64,000 bases of DNA from Candidatus Woesearchaeota archaeon (GTDB taxonomy: Archaea > Nanobdellota > Nanobdellia > Woesearchaeales > ARS49), in NCBI GenBank assembly GCA_014729505.1, contig WJJS01000001.1, positions 12,938 through 76,937 on the forward strand. Direction: 5' to 3'. Positions 3,929 to 46,269 of the stretch are shown in pieces; the stretch's first letter is position 1; each line of letters begins with the position of its first letter. The position numbers and the translations under genes are program-made. The notes under the pieces were generated by a model. That model saw only the letters and a program-made list of their open reading frames with translations, made no database searches and was not told the DNA's origin.

Positions 3929-6550
3929 TCAGTATTTCCTGAACAGCTTCACGATTTCGCCGAAAATCAAAACACTGGACGCTACAGCAGCAGCAATCAT
4001 CCAATCCATAAATGAAAGCGGAATCGTCTCAAAAAGAGTATTGAAAATACCAAGATGCACACTTGCAATTTGCAAACCAAAACTGAGCAACACCGCACCA
4101 ATCAACCATTTGTTAGACCATAACCCTACCGTAAAAATTGATTTCGTCTCAGAACGCTGATTAAGCACGTTAAACAACTGGAAAAGAACCAAGGTAGTAA
4201 AAGCCATCGTTTGCGCATATGTTTTATTCACCTCAGGCTCGTACCATTCAAACACAAAAAGAGTGCCAGCCATCATCAAAAGGCCAATAAACAACATAAG
4301 ACCTGCCCTGCTCTTGTTAACAATCTTTTCATCAATATCGCGAGGCTTTCGCTCCATAACTCCCGGTTCTTTAGGATCAACACTTAAACTCGTCGCAGGC
4401 AATAAATCAGTGGCAAGATTAATCCACAAAATCTGTCTTGCAGTTAACGGATCAATAAGGCCGAGAAGCGTTGCCACAAAAATAGTCAAAATCTCGCCGA
4501 CATTGCTTGATAACAAGTATATGACAAACTTCTTGATGTTATCATAAATAACGCGACCTTCTTCAACTGCACGAACAATAGTTGCAAAATTATCATCGGC
4601 AAGAATCATATCGCTGGCCTGACGAGAAACATCAGTACCAGTGATACCCATTGCAATGCCAAGATCAGCCTTCTTTAAAGCAGGAGCATCATTAGCACCG
4701 TCACCCGTCATAGCAACAATATGCCTGTTCTTACGCAGTGCATCGACAATATGCAGTTTATCCTCTGGATTAACACGGGCATAAATACTAATCTTTTCAA
4801 CATCACGCGAAAGATTGATAGACTCAAGCTCTACACCCTCAATAGCCCTGCCCTCAAGACCAATCTGTTTACCAATCGCTTTAGCAGTACCGAGATGATC
4901 GCCAGTAATCATCACCACCTTGATACCTGCAGCATTGCACGTCTTAATTGCTTTTTTAACCTCCTCTCGAGGAGGGTCAATCATGCCCTGCAACCCAATA
5001 AAGATCATGCTCTTTTCAATATCATCATGACTCAATTCATCCTTGAACTCCTTATAACAAAAACCAAGAACGCGCAAAGCCTGACTGGTAAATTCATCAT
5101 TTGTTTCAAGAATATGATCCCGATCCTCTTTAGTCAGCCGACGAACCTTTCCATCAACCAACATATGAGTACAAAAACCAAGCACCACTTCAGGAGCGCC
5201 CTTCGTATACGCCGTCTTCTTACCTTCAAAAGTGGAATGAATCGTCGTCATACACTTGCGTTCAGAACTAAAATCGATTTCATCAACGCGCGTATTATCA
5301 GAACGCACCTTGTCAAGATCAATACCTGACTTTGCTGCACTGACCAATAAAGCACCTTCAGTAGGGTCACCGACAATACTATGACGGCCCTGCTCCACAT
5401 CAAGCTGGGCATTATTGTTCAACACTCCTGCACGCAATAACGTATCAAGAGAGGATGTCTCTTTGGAAAAATCACCCTTTGGTTCATAACCAGAACCAGT
5501 TACCTGAACCACCTGTCCATCAACATACAGTTTTTTAACAGTCATCTCGTTATGCGTCAGCGTACCCGTTTTATCGGTACAAATCACCGTACACGCGCCC
5601 AGCGTTTCAACACTTGGAAGCTTGCGCATCAACGCCTTCTTCTTAGCCATGCGCTGCACGCCAAGAGCAAAAGCAATAGTAACCACTGCAGGCAAACCCT
5701 CAGGAATAGCAGCGACTGCAAGGGCAACAGCCTTTTCAAACACTTCAAGAAGATTTTTACCCAACAACACATCAACGCCAATCATCACCATAGCGATCAA
5801 GACCACCGCAGCAGTAAGCTGATATGCCAGTTTCTTGAGATCCTTTTGTATCGGCGTGGGCTCGCTTTTTGTCTTTTTGAGCATAGTTGCAATCTTACCG
5901 ATCTCAGTACGCATGCCAGTAGAAGTGACAACCGCCTTGCCGTGACCGGCAGTAACTGTCGTGCCAGAAAACACCATATTCTTCTGATCACCAATAGACA
6001 AACGATCAGCAATTCTCTTCACATCCTTTTTAACAGGAACAGATTCCCCGGTCAAAGCCGCTTCCTGCGTTTGCACATTCACCGCATCAATAAGACGAGC
6101 ATCTGCAGGCACAATATTACCTGTCTCCAGCACAATAATATCGCCCTTCACCACTTCTTCAGCAGGAATTTCGCGCCGACGACCATCACGAATAACAATG
6201 GCCTTAGGACTCACCATCTTACGCAATGCTTCAATAGATTCCTCGGCCTTATACTCCTGCCAAAAACCAAACAACGCATTAGCAATAACAACAATTGTAA
6301 TAACGTAAAAATCAATAAACTCTTGTAAAAACAAAGAAATACCCATCGCTGCCAAGAGAATCCAGACAAGAGGACTTGTAAACTGATGCAAGAAGATCAC
6401 AAACGGACTTATCTTCTTTTCACGCTCAAGAGCATTTTTACCAAACTTTTGCAAACGCTCCTTAGCCTGAGATTGTGATAATCCTTCCTTAGAAGAAGCA
6501 ACCTTATCAAATACCTTCTCCAAAGGCAGTTGATACCACTCTTTTTCCAT
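3929..6550 (-). CDS. P-type ATPase, type IIA (SERCA/PMR1-like Ca2+-transporting)
   Basis: DKTGTLT phosphorylation motif, [11 protein letters not shown] (TM4 PEGL), [49 protein letters not shown] (type II TM6 signature). Confidence 0.85.
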
Positions 6551-16831: not shown

Positions 16832-17517
16832 TTTTTATTCCTCTTTCTTACTTTACGAGTCCTGGTAGTATAAGTTTCTTTCGCTGCTGTCGCTCTACGA
16901 AAAAAACCAGAACCTCGCTCAAGAAGACGACCCCACACGCCACGAGCAGAACCGATCAGTGCTGCACCGATTACTGCAAACAATACAACAGCTGCAGAGG
17001 AAAAGCGACTGATCTCGTTTGCATGAGCAACAGAAGTAATATGAACGATCAAACCAAAAAGGAAGGAAACAAACGAAAAGATCCACGTACAAATGACGAT
17101 CCATCCAATTATTGAAGGCATTTTATCATTTTTAACTACTCCTCGATTTTCGAAGAATACATACGTCCTAAGAAACAGAAAGTAAAGACCTGCAAGGAGA
17201 ATACCATACACCCCGATAATCACTGTAACAGTCAACATTACATAGAGCAAAAAAGCCACATTGATCTGAAAATCCACCACGCCACTAAAAAGAGCGCTTG
17301 CCAGAGTGATATATACCCAGTATCCTAGAAGAAACGCTGCAGTAGCAGCAAAACGTACCGCCCTGGTCTTCAAAGAAATAAGGACTTCATGTTTGCGTTT
17401 TCCGCTGCCAAGCGCTGCAAGAGCGAGCAGAATCACCACACCAATAGAAATGGTGATGCCCTCAATAAAATGTGCGGGCGGCACAGCCACTGAAATGATA
17501 AAATCACTGAATGTCAT
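16828..17517 (-). CDS. Polytopic membrane protein, hypothetical
   Basis: Hydrophobic helices; basic C-terminal tail. Confidence 0.45.
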   Translation of the reverse strand: MTFSDFIISVAVPPAHFIEGITISIGVVILLALAALGSGKRKHEVLISLKTRAVRFAATAAFLLGYWVYITLASALFSGVVDFQINVAFLLYVMLTVTVIIGVYGILLAGLYFLFLRTYVFFENRGVVKNDKMPSIIGWIVICTWIFSFVSFLFGLIVHITSVAHANEISRFSSAAVVLFAVIGAALIGSARGVWGRLLERGSGFFRRATAAKETYTTRTRKVRKRNKK

Positions 17518-17605
17518 AGTCTCTTTTTTATTGCAGGAAAAAGTTCAAAGTTATAAACTTTTCAGCGACAATTTTTTAAAGAATCCGATGAAAAAGCATC
17601 CGTAC

Positions 17606-17640
17606 GGGCCGGTAGCTCAACCTGGTAGAGTGCTCCGTTG
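17606..17640 (+). repeat. Duplicated 5' fragment (35 nt) of tRNA-Ala(GGC)
   Basis: Identical to 17730-17764; preceded by ttttttaaag TATA-like box at about -30. Confidence 0.8.
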
Positions 17641-17696
17641 CGATGCTTTCGCCCATCGACAGCGAGGTCCGATCTCACTTGCGTGAGATCCGACAG
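17641..17696 (+). other. Conserved structured element, copy 1 (CGATG..CATCG hairpin + GGTCCGATCTCAC-TTGC-GTGAGATCCGAC hairpin)
   Basis: Shares motif with 20047-20108 and 22430-22462, with compensatory base changes in the hairpin stem. Confidence 0.5.
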
Positions 17697-17729
17697 TTTT
17701 ATGAATAGGTGTTTTTAGTATACGTTTAT

Positions 17730-17803
17730 GGGCCGGTAGCTCAACCTGGTAGAGTGCTCCGTTGGCTTCGGAGAGGCTGCGGGTTCAAATCCCGCTCGGT
17801 CCA
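17730..17803 (+). tRNA. tRNA-Ala (GGC)
   Basis: Manual cloverleaf: acceptor GGGCCGG/TCGGTCC with G3:U70, anticodon loop TTGGCTT, T-arm GCGGGTTCAAATCCCGC, discriminator A. Confidence 0.85.
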
Positions 17804-17858
17804 TGGGTGGCCTTGACGCCCTTTTTTTGATCAAACTTTTTGTAAAAGTTTGCGGTTA

Positions 17859-17879
17859 GAGGCTGCGGGTTCAAATCCC
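17859..17879 (+). repeat. Duplicated 3' fragment of tRNA-Ala (variable/T-arm)
   Basis: gaggctgcgggttcaaatccc identical to tRNA-Ala 17773-17793. Confidence 0.7.
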
Positions 17880-17893
17880 TTCAGGCTCATCTT

Positions 17894-17913
17894 GAAACTG
17901 CTCGCGCAGTTTC
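17894..17913 (+). terminator. Perfect 8-bp hairpin GAAACTGC-tcgc-GCAGTTTC followed by T-run
   Basis: Seen directly; downstream of tRNA-Ala locus. Confidence 0.35.
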
Positions 17914-18127
17914 GTGTTTTTTCACCTGCGATGAAATGCGGCACTCAACCAACTGCTGAAACCCCTCTCACACCATTCTTCAGACCAGTTCTCGACCACA
18001 CCATGGCCCGAACGGTGCGCTTGCTGCCTATAGTCGTCAACAACACGGTAGTTTTACCGGATCTTATCCTTCTTGTTTTACGATTTGTCCACAAGGTTTA
18101 TCAATGAGAGCGTGACAACACCATATT

Positions 18128-18754
18128 ATGGGGGCGTTACTCTTTGACTTTTGGGGAACATTGCTAGATCACGGCACGTACAGTCCTATTCGACAAACAT
18201 ACAAGATCATGCGACCACGCATGAGATTTGGTGATTTTGTTCCTCGATTCGAACAAGCTTTTATGACCGCCACATTCGAATCACAAGAACAGGCGTTTAA
18301 GGCGGCAGCAGAAGAACTCCACGTACGGCTCAAACCATTCATGGTTGACAAACTTATAGGTTTATGGAACAAAAGCCGTCTTCTCGCACAACCATACCCA
18401 GAAACATTTACTGTTCTTGAAGATCTCAAAAAAGAACACAAACTCGTCCTCTTGTCCAATACAGATTGTTTTGTAGAATCAGTGCTTAATAAATTTGAGA
18501 TAGAAAAATACTTCGATCTTATAGCACTATCATACCAAACCGGACTACTCAAGCAAGACGCGAAATCATTTGCATTAGTAGCAAAAAAACTGAAAATGAA
18601 AAAAAATGATCTCATCATGATTGGTGACAGCATGGAAACAGACATAAACGGAGCGGAACGCGCAGGAGTGCGAGCGATACTTGTAGATCGACGTGATCGA
18701 CGAGCACACGATCCAAAGATTGCAGATCTGACAGGACTCAAGGAGGTACTGTAA
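18128..18754 (+). CDS. HAD-superfamily hydrolase (subfamily IA-like)
   Basis: LLFDFWGTL (DxD motif I), SNT (motif II), IGDSMETDINGAERAG (motifs III/IV). Confidence 0.7.
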   Translation: MGALLFDFWGTLLDHGTYSPIRQTYKIMRPRMRFGDFVPRFEQAFMTATFESQEQAFKAAAEELHVRLKPFMVDKLIGLWNKSRLLAQPYPETFTVLEDLKKEHKLVLLSNTDCFVESVLNKFEIEKYFDLIALSYQTGLLKQDAKSFALVAKKLKMKKNDLIMIGDSMETDINGAERAGVRAILVDRRDRRAHDPKIADLTGLKEVL

Positions 18755-19161
18755 TGGACTGTTTGTTTTGCAAGATCGCGAAAAAAGAAATGCCAAGCGA
18801 AGTCCTCTACGAAGACGACGATATTTTTTGCTTCTTAGACATTAGGCCAATCAACAAAGGACACGCACTTATCATACCAAAACAACACCACGAAAACCTC
18901 TTTGATACGCCAGACGACTTGCTCAGCAAACTGATCATTACCGCCAAAAAACTAGGAAAGGTCATCCTGAACACCGTACAAGCTGACGGTCTTAATCTGG
19001 GCATGAACAACAAGCCAGCAGCAGGACAAGTAATTTTTCACACACACTTACATGTCATGCCGCGATTTGAAGATGACGGACATACACACTGGAAAGGAAA
19101 AGAAACAACAAAAACAGAGCGCGAAGCAGTAGCAGAAAAAATCAAAGAACAACTGCACTAG
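18754..19161 (+). CDS. HIT-family (histidine triad) hydrolase
   Basis: CLFCKI...GHALIIPKQH...HTHLHVMPR histidine triad. Confidence 0.75.
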   Translation: MDCLFCKIAKKEMPSEVLYEDDDIFCFLDIRPINKGHALIIPKQHHENLFDTPDDLLSKLIITAKKLGKVILNTVQADGLNLGMNNKPAAGQVIFHTHLHVMPRFEDDGHTHWKGKETTKTEREAVAEKIKEQLH

Positions 19162-19257
19162 CAAGAGCGCTATACTCCACATATTTCTTAAGTATACCTG
19201 CAGCTAAATGATAAAAATAGTCTGTGCGTTCTTTTTACTTCCATTCTTTTAAAAGAG

Positions 19258-19542
19258 GTGTTAATCGTGTCCCAAAAACAATTTACAACAGTATCGATCA
19301 TAGTCTTTCTCGTTTTGCTGAGCAGTACAGTACTCGCTATCTGCGATCAAACAATTGGAACATCAACAACGCTCAGTAGCGATATCGTGAACTGCAGCAC
19401 AACAAATGGGGTAACCATAAACTCGTCAAACGTCGTGCTGGATTGTGCAGGTCACACGATAATGAGCAATGGGACAGGTCTGCTCAATATTTACGGTGTG
19501 GAAGTAGAACCGGGATTAACAAATGTGACTATACAAAACTGA
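19258..19542 (+). CDS. Secreted N-x-T/S-rich protein fragment (signal peptide, beta-helix-like repeats), GTG start
   Basis: Hydrophobic N-terminus then NCS/NGT/NSS/NVT sequons; terminates at TGA 19540-19542. Confidence 0.3.
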   Translation: MLIVSQKQFTTVSIIVFLVLLSSTVLAICDQTIGTSTTLSSDIVNCSTTNGVTINSSNVVLDCAGHTIMSNGTGLLNIYGVEVEPGLTNVTIQN

Positions 19543-19549
19543 AACATAA

Positions 19550-19936
19550 ACGGATACTGCAGAACTACGCATTAATGGAGGAATTGTCAATATTAGACAA
19601 GGACGAAGCGTTAACGTAGATCTTGACAATGATAATAAAGCCGATCTGGTCATAACGACAACTAGCGTAGAGTACAGCACACTTGGAGTGACACTGAAAA
19701 AGTACGAAAAACCAGAACCGGTCATTACAGGAGAAGCCACGACAGAGGAACCAACAACAGAACCAGAACCTGAGCCGGTTGACGAACCAGTTGTGCAACC
19801 ACAGCCCGAACCTGAAAGCGACGAGCAAGCAGAGCCCGAACCAGAACCGCAACGTTCTGTTTTGCTTTACATCGTCATTGCAGGAGTAGGTTTAGTAGGC
19901 ATTGGCATTGTGGTGTGGTACTTATTCAAAAAATAG
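19550..19936 (+). pseudogene. Fragment encoding Pro/Glu-rich linker + C-terminal TM anchor of a surface protein; different frame from 19258-19542, no ATG
   Basis: Frame-2 ORF opens right after TAA at 19547-19549: ...KPEPVITGEATTEEPTTEPEPEPVDEP...LLYIVIAGVGLVGIGIVVWYLFKK; probable disrupted surface-protein gene. Confidence 0.3.
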
Positions 19937-20002
19937 AAGGCAGGAAAACCCCTGCTCATTTTTACTTTCTTTTTTCTCAAGAGTACAAAAACCTTTAAAA
20001 AA

Positions 20003-20012
20003 GACTTGTCTT
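20003..20012 (+). promoter_or_regulatory. TATA-like box (tttaaaaaag) about 25 nt upstream of the partial tRNA-Met copy
   Basis: Seen in sequence; archaeal promoter spacing. Confidence 0.35.
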
Positions 20013-20031
20013 CTCGAATATTCCAGAAGTA

Positions 20032-20046
20032 TGGTGGCGGAGTGGC
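20032..20046 (+). repeat. Duplicated 5' fragment of the tRNA-Met locus (4 nt flank + tRNA nt 1-11)
   Basis: tggtggcggagtggc identical to 20132-20146. Confidence 0.8.
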
Positions 20047-20108
20047 ATATTCCGATGTTTTCCGCCATCGACACGGAGGTCCGATCTCGCTTGCGCGAGA
20101 TCCGACGG
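20047..20108 (+). other. Conserved structured element, copy 2
   Basis: atattCCGATGTTTTCCGCCATCGACACGGAGGTCCGATCTCGCTTGCGCGAGATCCGACGG; matches 17641-17696 with covarying stem positions. Confidence 0.5.
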
Positions 20109-20135
20109 TAGTCAAGTAACACGAGTATCATTGGT

Positions 20136-20253
20136 GGCGGAGTGGCTTAGCCTGGTTAGAGCACCGCGCTCATAGGTCATACCTTTGAGCACTGAGCTTT
20201 CGAGCTATGACGAAGAAACGCGGGGGTCACGAGTTCAAATCTCGTCTCCGCCA
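20136..20253 (+). tRNA. tRNA-Met (CAT) with ~43-nt intron at the canonical 37/38 position
   Basis: Acceptor GGCGGAG/CTCCGCC, anticodon stem CCGCG..CGCGG, loop CTCATAG, T-arm ACGAGTTCAAATCTCGT, discriminator A; intron gtcatacctttgagcactgagctttcgagctatgacgaagaaa. Confidence 0.75.
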
Positions 20254-20396
20254 CTTTTTTATGGTGGGTGAGTGTAAGCGAACCCTCCTTTTTTTTCACA
20301 TTTTTCTCAAAAATTTGGTTTATTTTTTTGTCTTTGCCACTTTTTTTGTGCTGTTGAGCGTTAGCGAGGCGCACTTGTCATTTCACAGTACCATGC

Positions 20397-20759
20397 TCAA
20401 TCCTCAAAGGGATGAGAAAAAAGACGAAGATGCTGCTCAAGTTGGTGAGGATCCCAGATTTCAAGATGCGTAGAAAAAGGAATTATTTGACAGCGATTTG
20501 TCCACGGCCATGTTTCAGGATCGGGGAATCGCAGGTACGGATTGCAGACGACTTCATAGCGTTGCAGCACATCAAGATCAGGTGTTTGTTCAATGAGGTA
20601 TTCTTGATCTTTAGTAACAAGCAAGCCCATAACGAAAGCATCTTCAAGTACGCGGCATAACGTGTTGCGACCGTACCATCGACTGCATTCTTGAGGAAGC
20701 GCCAATTTATTATTACGATACGTGATAATGGGAGATAAGGGTATTGAGCGTCTTCGCAT
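20397..20759 (-). CDS. Hypothetical protein
   Basis: ORF only; no recognisable motif. Confidence 0.25.
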   Translation of the reverse strand: MRRRSIPLSPIITYRNNKLALPQECSRWYGRNTLCRVLEDAFVMGLLVTKDQEYLIEQTPDLDVLQRYEVVCNPYLRFPDPETWPWTNRCQIIPFSTHLEIWDPHQLEQHLRLFSHPFED

Positions 20760-20866
20760 GACAATACAGACAAAAAAACGATTTATAAATGCCGCGATAA
20801 AAGGCCATTACAACCTAAACGTTTAAATAGAAAATTTGCCTAATTGGCAAAAAAGGAGGTGAATTC

Positions 20867-21232
20867 ATGGCAAAAAAACCATCAATGTGGAAGCAAGTAG
20901 GTAATTGGGCCTTTATAGGCGGTGTTATCCTTGCAGTAGTGATTGGACTATTTTCTAGTCAAGTCGGCAATCTTGGACCTACACTCACGACAGTACTCGT
21001 CATTTTAGGATTGATCGTAGGATTGCTCAATGTCCAACCAGACGAAGCACTACACTTTTTGGCAGCTGCAGTCTCAATTGTTGTCGTCGCAGAATTTGGC
21101 GGTGCAGGATTTGAGCAAGTACAAACAGTAGGACCTGCTCTATCAGGACTATTTATGTCGCTTAAGACGTTTGTCGTTCCGGCAACAGTCGTTGTGGCAT
21201 TAGCAGCACTCTTTAGTGTAGCACGAGACTAA
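20867..21232 (+). CDS. Small membrane protein (3-4 TM helices), hypothetical
   Basis: Strong SD-like aaaaggaggtga 6 nt upstream; hydrophobic helices. Confidence 0.5.
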   Translation: MAKKPSMWKQVGNWAFIGGVILAVVIGLFSSQVGNLGPTLTTVLVILGLIVGLLNVQPDEALHFLAAAVSIVVVAEFGGAGFEQVQTVGPALSGLFMSLKTFVVPATVVVALAALFSVARD

Positions 21233-21293
21233 GTCTCGTCTTTTTCTTTTTCTTTTCATAACATTTTTAAGGAGTATATTTGACTTGCAGATC

Positions 21294-22355
21294 ATGGTTT
21301 ATTCGCTAGTCAGACCGCTGCTTTTTCGCATGGACGCAGAAAAAGTACATCATCGCCTCGTCAGGTTAGGAACGATGCTCCAACAAGTTCCCCTCGTCTT
21401 GCCGGTGCTTCGCAGTATCTTCACGTATCAGCATCCCGCACTACACGTACAAGTGGACGGCGTAGCGTATGAAAACCCGATAGGGTTAGCAGCAGGTTTT
21501 GACAAAAACGGCGAAATACCTCGATTTATGAGCAGTTTTGGTTTTGGACACGTAGAAATAGGCTCTGTGACAAGTAAACAACACACAGGCAATCCAAAAC
21601 CGCGAGTGCATCGCGTAATAGAAGAACAAGCATTAGTTATCAATTATGGACTAGCAAATCACGGTGCTGCAACAGTAAAACGACGAATAGCAGCGTATGA
21701 TGAAAAGATGCCTATTGGAATTAGCATCGCAAAGACACCCCGCGTAGGAGGAGAACAAGGGATACGCGATTACGCACAATCATTTAGAGATCTATCCATG
21801 CATGGAACGTATACGACGATAAACATCAGTTGTCCAAATGTGGCAGACGGAGAAACGTATGGAGAGAATCCCCGATTATTGCGATCTTTATTGCAAACAC
21901 TCTCAAAAGAAAAAATCGTCTCACCCGTATATCTCAAACTCAAACCAGATTATTCGCACAAACAAATCGATGACATACTCGAGGTTATCAATTCGTTTCC
22001 GTTTGTAAAAGGAGTAATCATCGGCAATCTCACAAAAGAACGAAAAGGGGCAGTCGCGAAAAGAACAGAGTCGGGCGGTATCAGCGGAAAACCAACTAGA
22101 AACAAAAGCACAGCATTAATACGATACGTCTACAAGAAAACAAATGGTCAACTCACCATTATTGGGTGCGGCGGTATCTTTACTGCCCAAGACGCGTATG
22201 ACAAAATAACATCCGGAGCAAGCATGTTACAACTCATAACGGGCATGATCTATTTAGGACCTAGCACCATAAGAAACATCAATAAAGGGCTTGTTACACT
22301 GCTCGAACAAGACGGATTTAAAAGCATCACCGAAGCAACAGGTTCGCGAGCGTGA
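21294..22355 (+). CDS. pyrD: Dihydroorotate dehydrogenase, class 2 (quinone-dependent, N-terminal membrane-association extension)
   Basis: ENPIGLAAGFDKNGE, GFGHVEIGSVT, IIGCGGI motifs; ATG at 21294 preferred over TTG at 21285. Confidence 0.8.
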   Translation: MVYSLVRPLLFRMDAEKVHHRLVRLGTMLQQVPLVLPVLRSIFTYQHPALHVQVDGVAYENPIGLAAGFDKNGEIPRFMSSFGFGHVEIGSVTSKQHTGNPKPRVHRVIEEQALVINYGLANHGAATVKRRIAAYDEKMPIGISIAKTPRVGGEQGIRDYAQSFRDLSMHGTYTTINISCPNVADGETYGENPRLLRSLLQTLSKEKIVSPVYLKLKPDYSHKQIDDILEVINSFPFVKGVIIGNLTKERKGAVAKRTESGGISGKPTRNKSTALIRYVYKKTNGQLTIIGCGGIFTAQDAYDKITSGASMLQLITGMIYLGPSTIRNINKGLVTLLEQDGFKSITEATGSRA

Positions 22356-22413
22356 AAGAAAACCACGTTCAAATCCGTAAACTTCTTAACTGGGGCATTT
22401 TATGTGCATATAT

Positions 22414-22462
22414 GCCGACGTCGCATACTCTGCGTATCGATGTTTTCCGCCATCGACACGGA
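22414..22462 (+). other. Duplicated 5' 14 nt of tRNA-Ser followed by conserved element core (CGATGTTTTCCGCCATCGACACGGA), copy 3
   Basis: gccgacgtcgcata then ctctgcgtatCGATGTTTTCCGCCATCGACACGGA; identical core to 20054-20078. Confidence 0.5.
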
Positions 22463-22539
22463 CGCGCGGCATTCGCTATTGCTCAGCCCCGCAAGACACA
22501 AATCTTAAAAGGCAGTTCCTTTGTTACTCACTTATTCTT

Positions 22540-22718
22540 GCCGACGTCGCATAATCTGGTACGCTAAAAAACGCATTAGCGTTTTTGGCGCGCCGAAAAG
22601 CTTTGCTTTTCTCGCGTTGCGCCGGTCTTGAAAACCGGTTCCCTTGGGTGCTCGAAAATCTGCGATTTTCGGCACGTACAAAAGCTGACGCTTTTGTCCG
22701 TATCCCGTTTCAAATCCG
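22540..22718 (+). pseudogene. Pseudo-tRNA-Ser: nt 1-22, ~56-nt insertion, anticodon arm + variable arm start, ~51-nt insertion, degenerate T-arm lacking 3' acceptor
   Basis: Segments 22540-22561, 22618-22649, 22701-22718 match the intact tRNA-Ser at 22756; no complementary 3' acceptor strand. Confidence 0.45.
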
Positions 22719-22755
22719 TAAACTTCTTAACTAGTGGCATTTCATGCGCATATAT

Positions 22756-22837
22756 GCCGACGTCGCATAATCTGGTATTGCGCCGGTCTTGAAAACCGGT
22801 TCCCTTGGGTATCCCGGTTCAAATCCGGGCGTCGGCG
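22756..22837 (+). tRNA. tRNA-Ser (TGA), type II with long variable arm
   Basis: Acceptor GCCGACG/CGTCGGC, 3-bp D stem, anticodon stem CCGGT/ACCGG loop CTTGAAA, variable arm TTCCCTTGGGTAT, T-arm CCCGGTTCAAATCCGGG, discriminator G. Confidence 0.85.
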
Positions 22838-22891
22838 TTTCTATGACGCGAAAGCGTCATCCCATTTTTGAAGTAGTGATTTGAACCGGGG
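22833..22891 (+). repeat. 59-nt direct repeat copy 1 (last 5 nt of tRNA-Ser + 54 nt trailer); second copy at 23751-23809
   Basis: Exact match cggcgtttctatgacgcgaaagcgtcatcccatttttgaagtagtgatttgaaccgggg. Confidence 0.8.
22841..22868 (+). terminator. Perfect hairpin ATGACGC-gaaa-GCGTCAT followed by cccattttt T-run, 3' of tRNA-Ser
   Basis: Seen directly. Confidence 0.4.
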
Positions 22892-23068
22892 CCAGTCAAG
22901 CTTTGCTTGACGTTGTCCTGGTTTCAAATCCGGGCGTCGGCGTTGTGGGCGCGTTAGCGCTCTTTTTTGTTGTTGTGATTTGAACCGGGGCCAGTCAAGC
23001 TTTGCTTGACGTTGTCCTGGTTTCAAATCCGGGTGTCGGCGTTGTGGGCGCGTTAGCGCTCTTTTTTT
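22876..23068 (+). repeat. Tandem direct repeat, 2 x ~99 nt, each containing inverted repeat GATTTGAACCGG...CCTGGTTTCAAATC and a tRNA-Ser 3'-end-like segment (cctggtttcaaatccgggcgtcggcg)
   Basis: Units 22876-22974 and 22975-23068 nearly identical (one g/t difference). Confidence 0.8.
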
Positions 23069-23135
23069 GATTGCTGCATCATTTCGAATCTAAACCATAA
23101 CCTTTATAAACTATGGCCACTATAGTAACTATAGT

Positions 23136-23336
23136 ATGCCAACAACTATCCAACTCAGCAAAGAAACCAAGAAGCTAATAAGCACGTTTGGTTCCAAAGA
23201 AGATACTTACGACACGATAATTAGAAGACTGTACAAATTAGCTGTTAAGGAGCAACTGAAAGAATTCTTGCTCTCATCAGAAGGAACAATGCCGATAGAT
23301 GAGGCGATTAAGAAAGCCAAGAAAAAATGGCAATAG
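23136..23336 (+). CDS. Putative ribbon-helix-helix (CopG-like) antitoxin
   Basis: N-terminal TIQLSKETKKLI beta-strand-then-helix pattern of RHH proteins; 66 aa; overlaps downstream gene by 10 nt. Confidence 0.35.
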   Translation: MPTTIQLSKETKKLISTFGSKEDTYDTIIRRLYKLAVKEQLKEFLLSSEGTMPIDEAIKKAKKKWQ

Positions 23337-23668
23337 TAGAGATTACGAAAACACTCTATGAACAGATAGATCGAAAATTCAAAGGAAAAAGTGTCAAAGT
23401 ATTACAACATTTGAAATCATTAGAAGAATCGCCAAAGAAAGGAAAACTCCTAGGAACCATAGGAGGAATAGTGATTAAAGAAGTAAAGTATGAAGGTTTC
23501 AGATTTTATTTCATCACCGACGGATTCAAACTCAAATATACCTCCTCTGAAGATCTTACCGACTTACTTTTGCGGGTTGTAAGAATGTCAGATAAGAAAC
23601 ATCAGCAACAGACTATCGACGAGATCAAACAGATTCTACTAACCATCGGTGTTGAAGGTTTGACTTGA
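23327..23668 (+). CDS. Putative RelE/ParE-family toxin
   Basis: KKGKLLGTIGG-IVIKEVKYEGFRFYFITDG and LLLRVVRMSDKK resemble the RelE/ParE G..L.G.L.G....R.G.YRiiY..d...i.il.i.hR pattern; 113 aa. Confidence 0.35.
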   Translation: MAIVEITKTLYEQIDRKFKGKSVKVLQHLKSLEESPKKGKLLGTIGGIVIKEVKYEGFRFYFITDGFKLKYTSSEDLTDLLLRVVRMSDKKHQQQTIDEIKQILLTIGVEGLT

Positions 23669-38088: not shown

Positions 38089-38091
38089 ATT

Positions 38092-38134
38092 TTTTTTCCT
38101 TTTTCGTATATGTGAATGCAATTAACAGGACGAG
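38092..38134. repeat. Duplicated copy of the ferredoxin gene 3' end (direct repeat of 38219-38261)
   Basis: ttttttcctttttcgtatatgtgaatgcaattaacaggac present twice. Confidence 0.6.
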
Positions 38135-38209
38135 CATTCTGCCGCTGTTTTTGCCCAGCGGTTGCAATGCGTGACGCTCGGCTTTGCCTCGATCACGCAG
38201 TTAGAATTT

Positions 38210-38467
38210 CTAGATTCTTTTTTTTCCTTTTTCGTATATGTGAATGCAATTAACAGGACAACACTCTGCGGCGTCCATATTATCTTTGAGATCATCGAGT
38301 TCGAGATGTTCTTCAAGACCGACCTTTTTGGCTCCCTTCAAATCAACTTTGCCATCATCACTTATCGTCCAAAATTCTTCAGCAATAGCAGTACAACTAC
38401 CACAACCAATACATTCAGAACGCTCATGAACAATCCTGAACTTTTTATCTTTGTTTTTCTCAGGCAT
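38210..38467 (-). CDS. Small 4Fe-4S ferredoxin-like protein
   Basis: CIGCGSCTAIAEEF and AAECCPVNCIHIY cysteine clusters. Confidence 0.7.
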   Translation of the reverse strand: MPEKNKDKKFRIVHERSECIGCGSCTAIAEEFWTISDDGKVDLKGAKKVGLEEHLELDDLKDNMDAAECCPVNCIHIYEKGKKRI

Positions 38468-42882: not shown

Positions 42883-43659
42883 ATGCACAAAGCATTAACG
42901 ATAGTATTGCTAGGAATTCTTCTAGTTGGATGCTCAACAACACTAGACACGTCGTCGACAAATCCGCCAACAGCGCCGCACTCAACTTCAAGTCCTCCAA
43001 CAACACAACACCCCGCAACAGAGAACAATTCACAACACACCACAACACAAAATGATTCACAATATCCGACAACGCAGAACGATTCACAACACACGGCAAC
43101 CAATGACTACGTTGCGGGACGAGAACTCTTCAAACTACAACGGGATTCAGACAGTGCACTGGGACAACGAGTAACAGACTTTTTCCCACTTCCTGCAGGA
43201 GCAGTTCTTGTCGAGACAAGACATTTTGGAGCGCAACAATTCAAAGCAAATCTTGTATCAAAAACAGGAGACATATTTCCTTTAGTCAATGATGAAGGAT
43301 ACATTCTTACCACTACGCTGCACTCTTTTGCGGCAGGCCAGTACCTGCTAGACATGATCATCAATGGCGAAGTTACCTTTATCATACGAACACCGGACAT
43401 AGAAGAAGCAACATCATGGAGCGGAGCCGGCAAGAAGTTCACCCCCTTCTTTACACTTTCAGGAACCAACACCTTTGAGATGTCGTTTCAAGGAAATGGA
43501 TTATACATCGTGTCACTATACAATCAAGCAGGAGAACGCATCGCCGTACTTGCACAAGGCGACACCACAGAAAAAACAAACACTGACGTAACCGTACCAC
43601 AAGGACTCTATCTGTTAGGTATAGAATCAACAGGAGTCTGGGACATACAACTCAAATAA
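42883..43659 (+). CDS. Secreted lipoprotein with Thr/Ser/Gln-rich linker (lipobox LLVGCS), hypothetical
   Basis: MHKALTIVLLGILLVGCSTT signal peptide; repeated NDSQ(H/Y)(T/P)TTQ units. Confidence 0.55.
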   Translation: MHKALTIVLLGILLVGCSTTLDTSSTNPPTAPHSTSSPPTTQHPATENNSQHTTTQNDSQYPTTQNDSQHTATNDYVAGRELFKLQRDSDSALGQRVTDFFPLPAGAVLVETRHFGAQQFKANLVSKTGDIFPLVNDEGYILTTTLHSFAAGQYLLDMIINGEVTFIIRTPDIEEATSWSGAGKKFTPFFTLSGTNTFEMSFQGNGLYIVSLYNQAGERIAVLAQGDTTEKTNTDVTVPQGLYLLGIESTGVWDIQLK

Positions 43660-45794: not shown

Positions 45795-46024
45795 GGGATA
45801 GTAGAAAGAGAAAAACAATAAATAAGTTTTGAATTCATTTTAGCGCAGTAGTACCTATGAGATCTACTTCCATATACAATTCTTCCTGTCTACCGATTAC
45901 AGAAATCGTCTTTTTCTCTATACTACTCATTTTGCTACAGTACTGCCAATGCAGGACTACTTTCGAAAGCCCAAGGTATGTTCAACGGGATTGCAGTACT
46001 AACGTTATTATCGTTGAATAAGAA

Positions 46025-46040
46025 TCCCCGCCCCCGGACT
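46025..46040. repeat. Duplicated 16-nt fragment of the tRNA-Tyr 3' end/T-arm
   Basis: tccccgcccccggact identical to 46146-46161; adjacent palindromes ctgcagaaaacacttcgtgtttttgcag and gaaccaggaacctggttc. Confidence 0.7.
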
Positions 46041-46145
46041 CAGCGTTAACCTGCGGTTAACTGGCTGCAGAAAACACTTCGTGTTTTTGCAGTGAACCAG
46101 GAACCTGGTTCAAGCCTTGTAAGATATTGTTTCCAAAAAGAAAAG

Positions 46146-46269
46146 TCCCCGCCCCCGGACTTGAACCAGGAACCTCGCGGTGACGGCTGACTCGCCTTCA
46201 CGTCTCGAGCGTTGCTCGGAATCAGTTGAGTTTCTACAGCCGCGCGCTCTACCATTGAGCTAGGCGGGG
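46146..46269 (-). tRNA. tRNA-Tyr (GTA) with ~52-nt intron at canonical position
   Basis: Reverse complement: CCCCGCC TA GCTCAATGGTAGAGC G CGCGG CTGTAGA [intron] CCGCG AGGTT CCTGGTTCAAGTCCGGG GGCGGGG A; C1:G72 as expected for archaeal Tyr. Confidence 0.8.

Follow-up and report, generated by a model that had tools for sequence, protein, structure and literature searches.

In a 64,000-nt stretch of the genome of a Candidatus Woesearchaeota archaeon (assembly GCA_014729505.1, contig WJJS01000001.1, positions 12,938 to 76,937 of the forward strand; this whole stretch is called here the window and its first letter is position 1), we found that the start of the tRNA-Met gene is present twice. Between the two copies lies a conserved 57-nt module, called here element E, which also follows truncated 5' pieces of the tRNA-Ala and tRNA-Ser genes. 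The explanation that we prefer, to which we give a probability of about 0.55, is a lineage-specific insertion-duplication, where E would be the end of a tRNA-gene-associated insertion or recombination module that is now read through as part of a leader.

According to this explanation, an insert of about 85 nt would lie between nucleotides 11-14 and the remainder of the tRNA-Met gene. The left 57 nt of the insert would be the structured module E, and the sequence from -4 to +11/14 would stand on both sides, with the old promoter and a dead 5' stub upstream and the intact gene downstream. Most likely E is what has been conserved at the end of a small insertion or recombination module tied to tRNA genes, be it a miniature or remnant integrative element or a unit spread by recombination, in a family of at least three copies, each of them immediately 3' of a truncated tRNA 5' piece (Met, Ala and Ser); the tRNA itself probably does not use E as a working part. 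Transcription of tRNA-Met would still start from the old TATA box, giving a precursor leader made of stub, E and spacer (about 104 nt). RNase P would then cut at 20135/20136 and the splicing endonuclease would remove the 43-nt intron of the tRNA.

Duplication of the tRNA-Met gene start

Two copies of the sequence TGGTGGCGGAGTGGC are present, at 20032-20046 and 20132-20146, with an offset of exactly 100 nt. No further site with up to two mismatches was found in the 64 kb, the number expected from shuffles being 0.03. One mismatch lengthens the repeat to 18 nt (20032-20049 and 20132-20149, 94% identity). The partial copy on the plus strand (20032-20049) therefore corresponds exactly to positions -4 to +11 of the tRNA gene and, with one mismatch, reaches +14. 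An earlier reading of this DNA from its letters only, hereafter the original prediction, had claimed both a 15-nt partial copy of the tRNA-Met start and an onset of the duplicated segment 4 nt 5' of tRNA nucleotide 1; both claims hold, the 15-mer being exact at the two sites and the repeat starting at 20132 for a tRNA that starts at 20136. The repeat of 15-18 nt brackets 82-85 nt of inserted DNA and tRNA-Met is intact, which is the pattern of attL and attR sites at a tRNA gene, where a direct repeat of part of the tRNA surrounds the insert and the tRNA is reconstituted.

Regarding the promoter, the motif tttaaaaaag that had been placed about 25 nt before the partial copy is present at 19994-20003 on the plus strand, with a measured distance of 28 nt (-42 relative to 20036). 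It is the sole A/T-rich 8-mer cluster within the 60 nt 5' of the partial copy. The 60 nt 5' of the intact gene (20136) hold no 8-mer with at least seven A/T, and the spacer that ends the insert (20110-20131, plus strand), which is not conserved and has no significant similarity to the spacer of the Ala locus, has no TATA-like box.

Comparison with an uninterrupted relative

The dihydroorotate dehydrogenase (DHODH) encoded between the Met and Ser loci is identical to an NCBI protein from a metagenome-assembled Candidatus Woesearchaeota genome. The closest available relative was a Woesearchaeota contig from JGI, L012, whose DHODH is the next best match, 56% identical to that of the window. The order HAD, HIT, tRNA-Met, small open reading frame (ORF), DHODH, tRNA-Ser, EF-1alpha, EF-2 is common to L012 and the window, and the core genes around the loci include GluRS, EF-1alpha and EF-2. 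In L012 tRNA-Met comes straight after the promoter aaccTTTAAAAG, with the box at -41/-42 and with neither stub nor E. As the gene is uninterrupted there, we take the first copy in the window as the ancestral gene start, with tttaaaaaag, homologous to the L012 box, as the ancestral tRNA-Met promoter, and the 82-85 nt together with the second copy of the gene start as the derived insertion-duplication. None of the nine tRNA genes sampled in the DPANN contigs L012, L015, L016, L018 and L019 had a 5' stub, and L017 contained no tRNA gene.

Element E at three tRNA loci

A repeat analysis over 17000-23500 brought out the recurrence of E at the Ala locus. The Met copy of E occupies 20053-20109 on the plus strand (CGATGTTTTCCGCCATCGACACGGAGGTCCGATCTCGCTTGCGCGAGATCCGACGGT) and the Ala copy 17641-17697 (CGATGCTTTCGCCCATCGACAGCGAGGTCCGATCTCACTTGCGTGAGATCCGACAGT). 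Both are identical at 49 of 57 positions, 8 differences (14%) separating them, and the Met copy scored 90 bits with the covariance model of E. A 21-nt core pattern of E was found at the Ala and Met sites only (0.01 expected). In the Ala locus (17603-17697, plus strand) a partial copy of tRNA-Ala from -3 to +35 (17603-17640) is directly followed by E. In a third locus (22413-22462, plus strand) a partial copy of tRNA-Ser, from about +1 to +22, precedes a piece of E (22438-22462) that comprises its initial 25 nt, all 25 of them identical to the Met copy; the covariance model gave this truncated copy 32 bits and aligned it as E minus hairpin 2. The conserved element that had been predicted beside the partial copy was thus found again. 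As for the Ala locus, said to hold the same arrangement, the partial copy and E were borne out, but the intron-containing tRNA was not, tRNA-Ala being intronless.

The onset of E, CGATG, adjoins the tRNA 5' piece in each case, at about +34/+35 in Ala, at about +22 in Ser and at +14 plus TTC in Met. The sequence 3' of E (22-29 nt) showed no significant similarity between Ala and Met when local alignments were compared with shuffles, and local alignments looking for a promoter included in the duplication were no better than shuffles either. The flanking duplications are perfect (35/35 in Ala and 15/15 in Met) though the E copies differ, which suggests either that copies which had already diverged were inserted separately and fairly recently, or that the repeats underwent gene conversion.

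An assembly artefact or collapsed strain variants would be the least probable of the explanations considered here. The genome was assembled from a metagenome, and misjoined variant paths can yield short tandem structures. Nevertheless, one architecture is present at three separate loci, the E copies have diverged with compensatory changes, the repeat lengths (15, 38 and 22 nt) are not k-mer-like and the neighbouring repeats are 74-96% identical and not exact.

A likely fold of E and its compensatory changes

Judging from its two full copies, E likely folds into a hairpin P1, a pseudoknot and a hairpin 2. P1 (20053-20070, plus strand) pairs CGAUG with CAUCG around an 8-nt loop and keeps 5/5 pairs in both full copies. 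In the proposed pseudoknot (20060-20078, plus strand) the loop nucleotides 20060-20064 would pair with 20074-20078, after an ACA linker, with 5/5 pairs in each copy; in two of these pairs both partners differ between Ala and Met (CG/GC swaps). The cognate pseudoknot duplexes had -6.2 kcal/mol, and the cross-combinations -3.4 and -4.9 kcal/mol. Hairpin 2 (20079-20106, plus strand) has 3 + 8 bp, one C/C mismatch and the loop UUGC. It was present in every fold and shows one compensatory change, from A-U to G-C.

All 21 proposed pairs are formed in both full copies and three of them are changed on both sides. Six of the eight differences between Ala and Met sit in these three covarying pairs, and shifting the partners abolishes the pairing. 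The shuffle control of the pairs gave 59/500, with a floor of 1 in 8 for two sequences only, and the pseudoknot was proposed after the differences had been seen. The compensatory changes favour selection on some nucleic-acid fold, without telling a function in the host transcript from the spread of an element.

The same eight differences might also be looked at as those of a micro-protein. An ATG at 20055 opens a frame of 18 codons (MFSAIDTEVRSRLREIRR and a stop), with 21 codons in the Ala copy (MLSPIDSEVRSHLREIRQFYE and a stop); the conserved block begins 2 nt before this ATG, the Met block ends at the stop codon and each codon change is either synonymous or a conservative replacement (L/F, P/A, S/T, H/R, Q/R). 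However, a constraint of this type seems very unlikely to us. A rough count gave about 3 synonymous against 5 non-synonymous differences, with no clear purifying signal. Furthermore, no ribosome-binding site is suitably spaced from the ATG, the frame is inside a tRNA leader and the Ser copy departs after codon 7, whereas base-pair compensation accounts for the eight differences more completely.

A search with cmscan against Rfam 15 (E<=10) found no family on the plus strand over E. The sole entry overlapping it was Chlorobi-1 on the minus strand, which scored 14 bits where the gathering score is 50, and over 17400-23300 tRNA matches alone reached the threshold. Layouts of the hepatitis delta virus (HDV)-like, pistol, K-turn, C/D and H/ACA types were rejected because none of them could be fitted to E by inspection.

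Probable transcription and predicted folding of the tRNA-Met precursor

TATA-like boxes lie 31-33 nt before nucleotide 1 of tRNA-Tyr, of the Ala stub, of the intact tRNA-Ala and of the Ser and Gly genes of L012 (17697-17704, 17574-17583 and 46294-46301 in the window; 4013-4020 and 11404-11411 in L012). The intact tRNA-Ala has a box of its own, TTTTATGA, at -33 and within the insertion. From this spacing, tRNA genes with a box at -31 to -33 should be nearly leaderless, as are those of Nanoarchaeum equitans. The box of tRNA-Met, unlike that of the other tRNA genes, is at -41/-42 both in the window and in L012. Since there is no TATA-like box between E and the intact tRNA-Met, transcription would start from 19994-20003 and run through stub and E. 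Therefore tRNA-Met is probably made with a leader of about 104 nt, which RNase P would remove, and such a leader would contrast with the almost leaderless other tRNA genes. In the Ala locus, a TTTT that comes after hairpin 2 also serves as part of the new TATA-like box, and the transcript of stub plus E and tRNA-Ala may be separate RNAs.

Folding predictions for the Met precursor (20028-20256) give a modular structure: hairpin 2 stands alone, the tRNA cloverleaf forms independently and a minihelix-like hairpin of 7 + 5 bp joins the stub to the 5' half of E. It had been proposed to fold the full precursor and see whether the leader copy pairs with the 3' acceptor strand of the tRNA, as a sign of a role in processing control. 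This pairing is trivially possible, the stub being identical to the real 5' strand, but the stub is predicted to be locked with E and the tRNA to fold by itself. The complementarity between stub and E was at chance level, being equalled by 92/1000 shuffles in Met and 706/1000 in Ala, and a role in processing control is neither supported nor excluded by these models. The stub-E helix of Met is incompatible with P1 and the pseudoknot of E (-42.6 kcal/mol when the stub is allowed to pair, -28 kcal/mol when it is not). When we looked for an adaptation of the E loop to the 5' strand of the cognate tRNA, the duplex energies were at chance and Ala had no clear cognate preference.

These results bear on a reading of E as a functional RNA on tRNA promoters, either a cis-acting leader or a small non-coding RNA that RNase P would free from the dicistronic precursor by cutting at the tRNA 5' end, which we consider possible although only as a minority option, with odds of about one in four. 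As a leader it might sequester a decoy 5' strand, time the cleavage by RNase P or terminate transcription. The pseudoknot and hairpin kept by compensatory changes in both copies agree with such a function, as does the position of E on the transcribed strand 3' of a tRNA promoter at 3/3 loci; the Met copy would have to be co-transcribed, with no TATA-like box 3' of E, its predicted fold sequesters the stub with the 5' half of E and leaves the tRNA free to fold, and hairpin 2 of Ala followed by UUUU is terminator-like. On the other hand, the predicted stub-E helix of Met is favoured over P1 plus pseudoknot, so that the conserved fold would not form, and the stub-E complementarity in Met and Ala does not go beyond chance. 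Moreover, L012 does without E, the Ser copy has lost hairpin 2, and E has neither C/D or H/ACA boxes nor a K-turn nor an Rfam match.

The intact tRNA-Met gene and its intron

The intact tRNA(CAU) gene, of the elongator-Met type (G1-C72), is at 20136-20253 on the plus strand, with exons 20136-20174 and 20218-20253. Positions 1-71 of the Rfam tRNA model cover it with 55 bits and a 45-nt insertion in the anticodon loop. A manual parse gave the anticodon stem CCGCG/CGCGG and a loop made of CUCAUA, the intron and A, with the anticodon CAU. The intron (20175-20217, plus strand) has 43 nt and lies at the canonical position 37/38. In its splice motif the anticodon stem is the 5-bp outer helix, GUCAUA/UAUGAC is the 6-bp inner helix, the 3-nt bulges are UA/G and AA/A (the stroke marks the exon-intron boundary) and the central helix has 2/4 Watson-Crick pairs. 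Cloverleaf, CAU anticodon, 37/38 intron and 3-nt bulges are those of a canonical archaeal intron-containing elongator tRNA-Met, and the intact tRNA-Met(CAT) with a 43-nt canonical intron that had been predicted is confirmed by the Rfam match together with the splice-motif parse. G1-C72 and the anticodon stem argue for the elongator type rather than the initiator; going by the sequence, tRNA-Ile2(CAU) is an alternative identity.

By default ARAGORN overlooks the tRNA(CAU) genes at 20136-20254 and at 1748-1863 of L012. When introns are allowed, it shifts the intron by 3 nt and names the genes of both the window and L012 tRNA-Ser(cga), an identity that we rejected for 20136-20253 because of the short variable loop. 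This is worth taking into account in annotation, as tRNA finders overlook or misname this tRNA-Met and the stubs are open to misreading as split halves.

Actually, the stub could be thought of as a real 5' exon, followed by a non-canonical intron or belonging to a split or alternative 5' half, that the splicing endonuclease deals with. The host belongs to DPANN, where split tRNAs and broad-specificity endonucleases are known (PMC5829648). Furthermore, the Ala copies allow a splice motif at position 14/15 (4/4 central, 5/7 inner and 5/6 outer pairs), and the predicted Ala read-through fold pairs copy 1 with the 3' acceptor strand. However, we find this reading highly improbable. The Ala motif comes from the quasi-palindrome of acceptor and D sequences, with the acceptor strand as outer helix; an intact gene is there in every case, and the one of Ala has its own TATA-like box. 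In Met, splicing would need a self-complementary tetramer within the repeat and none exists. The best Met register had 3/4 central, 4/7 inner and 1/6 outer pairs, and a split tRNA or non-canonical intron at Met was rejected after a bulge-helix-bulge scan of every register that restores the tRNA. A split half ends at the splice position, usually 37/38, and has no intact gene beside it, whereas this stub ends at +11/+14 and the intact tRNA is 100 nt downstream; no separate 3' half without a 5' part was seen in the window. The uninterrupted L012, the intact gene, the end of the stub and the lack of a bulge-helix-bulge thus support the view of the original prediction that there was a recombination or duplication and not a split-tRNA half.

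The intron of tRNA-Met (20175-20217; 1788-1826 in L012) has a conserved pair CUGA ... (U/G)AUGA that resembles boxes D' and C', and its core GAGCACTGAGCTTTCGAGC is identical between the window and L012, the relative with 56% identity. The 9 nt that precede the CUGA of the intron, CUUUGAGCA, pair with G31-A37 of the anticodon arm. This pairing puts the fifth nucleotide 5' of CUGA opposite C34, and the intron could therefore be a guide in cis for 2'-O-methylation of the wobble C. The intron of tRNA-Trp is known as a guide of 2'-O-methylation in cis. In haloarchaeal tRNA-Met, methylation of the wobble C is guided in trans by sR-tMet (PMC4033218).

Searches for relatives of E and for mobility genes

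The covariance model of E, run on the window and on the L012, L015 and L016 loci, found the three known copies only. A pattern scan of the GTDB species representatives gave 7 matches, all of them bacterial and put down to chance, and the JGI metagenomes gave 2, both chance matches in GC-rich coding sequence. Scans of IMG/VR, where DPANN mobile elements are poorly covered, gave chance matches or none for E and for the tRNA 5' segments. In BLAST against INPHARED phages and PLSDB plasmids, with equally poor coverage of DPANN mobile elements, nothing matched E or the tRNA 5' sequence, and no matching attP on a virus or plasmid was found in these three collections. No copy of E was thus seen outside the window in the collections searched, which do not contain the source genome. 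The other short inserts near tRNAs, compared with E all against all, had low-complexity or hairpin similarity only, E being the sole insert with multiple copies.

Several points weigh against the insertion-duplication. E is known from two full copies and one fragment, at three sites of one genome, and its mobility, present or former, would have to be deduced from these. No integrase, transposase or reverse transcriptase was found near the Ala, Met or Ser locus. The ORFs adjoining the loci are housekeeping genes or have no recombinase domain, so element-encoded genes, as expected between attL and attR, were not seen, and for the neighbouring ORF no homologues other than itself were found. An excision circle of 100-124 nt is physically implausible, and to our knowledge an insert of 85 nt is far below any known integrative element in size. 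The direct repeats are of variable length (15-38 nt), unlike a target-site duplication of the transposase type. The right part of the insert differs between Ala and Met, so a discrete element with two ends is not demonstrated. Finally, the selection on the fold could equally well come from an RNA function of E in the leader.

Likeness to known systems

In Caldiarchaeum subterraneum, the fragment tRNA-Thr-F, an insertion of 1.8 kb and tRNA-Thr-II follow each other, as explained by integration between attP and attB (PMC3293823). Archaeal integrative elements of the SSV1 and pNOB8 types leave a 5' fragment in direct orientation upstream of a complete copy, with the insert between them, as at Met. 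The insert is absent from the related genome and the repeat length is set by the shared tRNA sequence in these elements, and the same is true here. Nevertheless, our insert has 85 nt and no recombinase gene, no donor was found and a 57-nt module stands at three tRNAs. Miniature inverted-repeat transposable elements (MITEs) and repetitive extragenic palindromic (REP)-like elements are, like E, small, hairpin-rich, multicopy and flanked by direct repeats. However, by inspection E has no terminal inverted repeats, its repeats have 15/18, about 22 and 38 nt, its right end is not conserved and the only targets known for it are the 5' halves of tRNA genes.

The split tRNAs of Nanoarchaeum equitans and Caldivirga resemble these loci in the DPANN host and in a promoter-adjacent 5' piece followed by non-tRNA sequence, but here the pieces end at +11/14, +34 and about +22, there is no pair of complementary GC-rich leaders and the complete gene is in cis. 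Plant tRNA-snoRNA dicistrons and structured pre-tRNA leaders have, as E would, a folded RNA on a tRNA promoter that is parted from the tRNA by end-processing; E differs from the dicistronic tRNA-linked small RNAs in its lack of guide-RNA boxes and in its place upstream of the tRNA, with a tRNA stub in front of it. HDV-like theta, pistol and hammerhead ribozymes share with E a compact arrangement of hairpin, pseudoknot and hairpin beside tRNA sequence. By inspection, though, the P2 helix of pistol is missing from E, as is the P1/P2 nesting seen in HDV-like ribozymes, and no Rfam ribozyme matched it at E<=10. With a spacer of 22-29 nt, cleavage within E could not create the 5' end of the tRNA.

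The locus is set apart from these systems by a geneless insert of 85 nt, by the same 57-nt module abutting stubs at three tRNAs and by perfect flanks around module copies that differ by 14%. E might be a small structured element that has not been described before, either a miniature mobile element specific for tRNA 5' halves or a non-coding RNA released by RNase P; we put forward this idea tentatively, with odds of about one in five. Such an element would enter the 5' halves of tRNA genes, preserve the tRNA by duplicating the gene start and from then on be transcribed from the tRNA promoter.

Other fragments around the tRNA genes

The four tRNA loci hold 10 of the 15 short-range direct-repeat families of the window. 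Partial 3' copies were found downstream of all four tRNAs, at 17858-17879 (Ala), 20330-20367 (Met), 22865-23062 (Ser) and about 46017-46110 (Tyr). The one of Met is a degenerate second copy of the tRNA 3' end and terminator on the plus strand, 86 nt 3' of the first and 74% identical to 20244-20281. In the relatives, 1846-1962 of L012 and 3951-4116 of L016 have perfect 18-19-nt repeats of the tRNA 3' end, with 75-150 nt of unrelated sequence between them.

The tRNA-Ser locus (22360-23065) is a mosaic with a 342-nt tandem duplication that includes the promoter. Its second tRNA-Ser copy, at 22540-22720, comes with a separate TATA-like box; two hairpin-rich inserts, of 55 and 52 nt, interrupt this copy, and the 3' acceptor strand is missing from it. 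After the intact tRNA-Ser there are two 99-nt tandem units, each composed of the reverse complement of the T arm, a hairpin, the T arm, the 3' acceptor end and a terminator hairpin. Just 3' of this array, at 23136-23668, there is a small ORF, weakly matching DUF7557 (66 aa), that runs into the start of a family-less ORF of 113 aa in a toxin-antitoxin-like arrangement.

Downstream of tRNA-Tyr (46146-46269), at 46017-46140 on the minus strand, the T arm is present as a perfect palindrome, CTTGAACCAGG tt CCTGGTTCA; two hairpins come next, and after them the tRNA-Tyr 3' end AGTCCGGGGGCGGGGA. This array is a 3' fragment with the T loop interrupted by about 52 nt, and the same layout is found after tRNA-Ser of L012 (4165-4250).

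Away from the tRNA genes, a perfect direct repeat of 42 nt at 38090-38259 surrounds a hairpin-rich insert unrelated to E, between convergent genes. This insert has 86 nt, compared with 86 nt in Ala and 85 nt in Met. As this repeat stands at a site with no tRNA, the process would not be strictly limited to tRNA genes. Three CACAAC-rich tandem units of 27 nt, 77-79% identical, were seen at 43004-43100.

Implications for tRNA gene fragmentation

The working model for the way in which archaeal tRNA genes come to be interrupted or split, or to have fragments around them, is the integration of mobile elements at tRNA genes. The locus described here is a case where a very small insert severs the start of a gene from its body, the gene is kept functional and an uninterrupted relative is at hand for comparison. 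Should E turn out to be mobile or to have a function, the break-up of tRNA genes in DPANN archaea would have a new agent.

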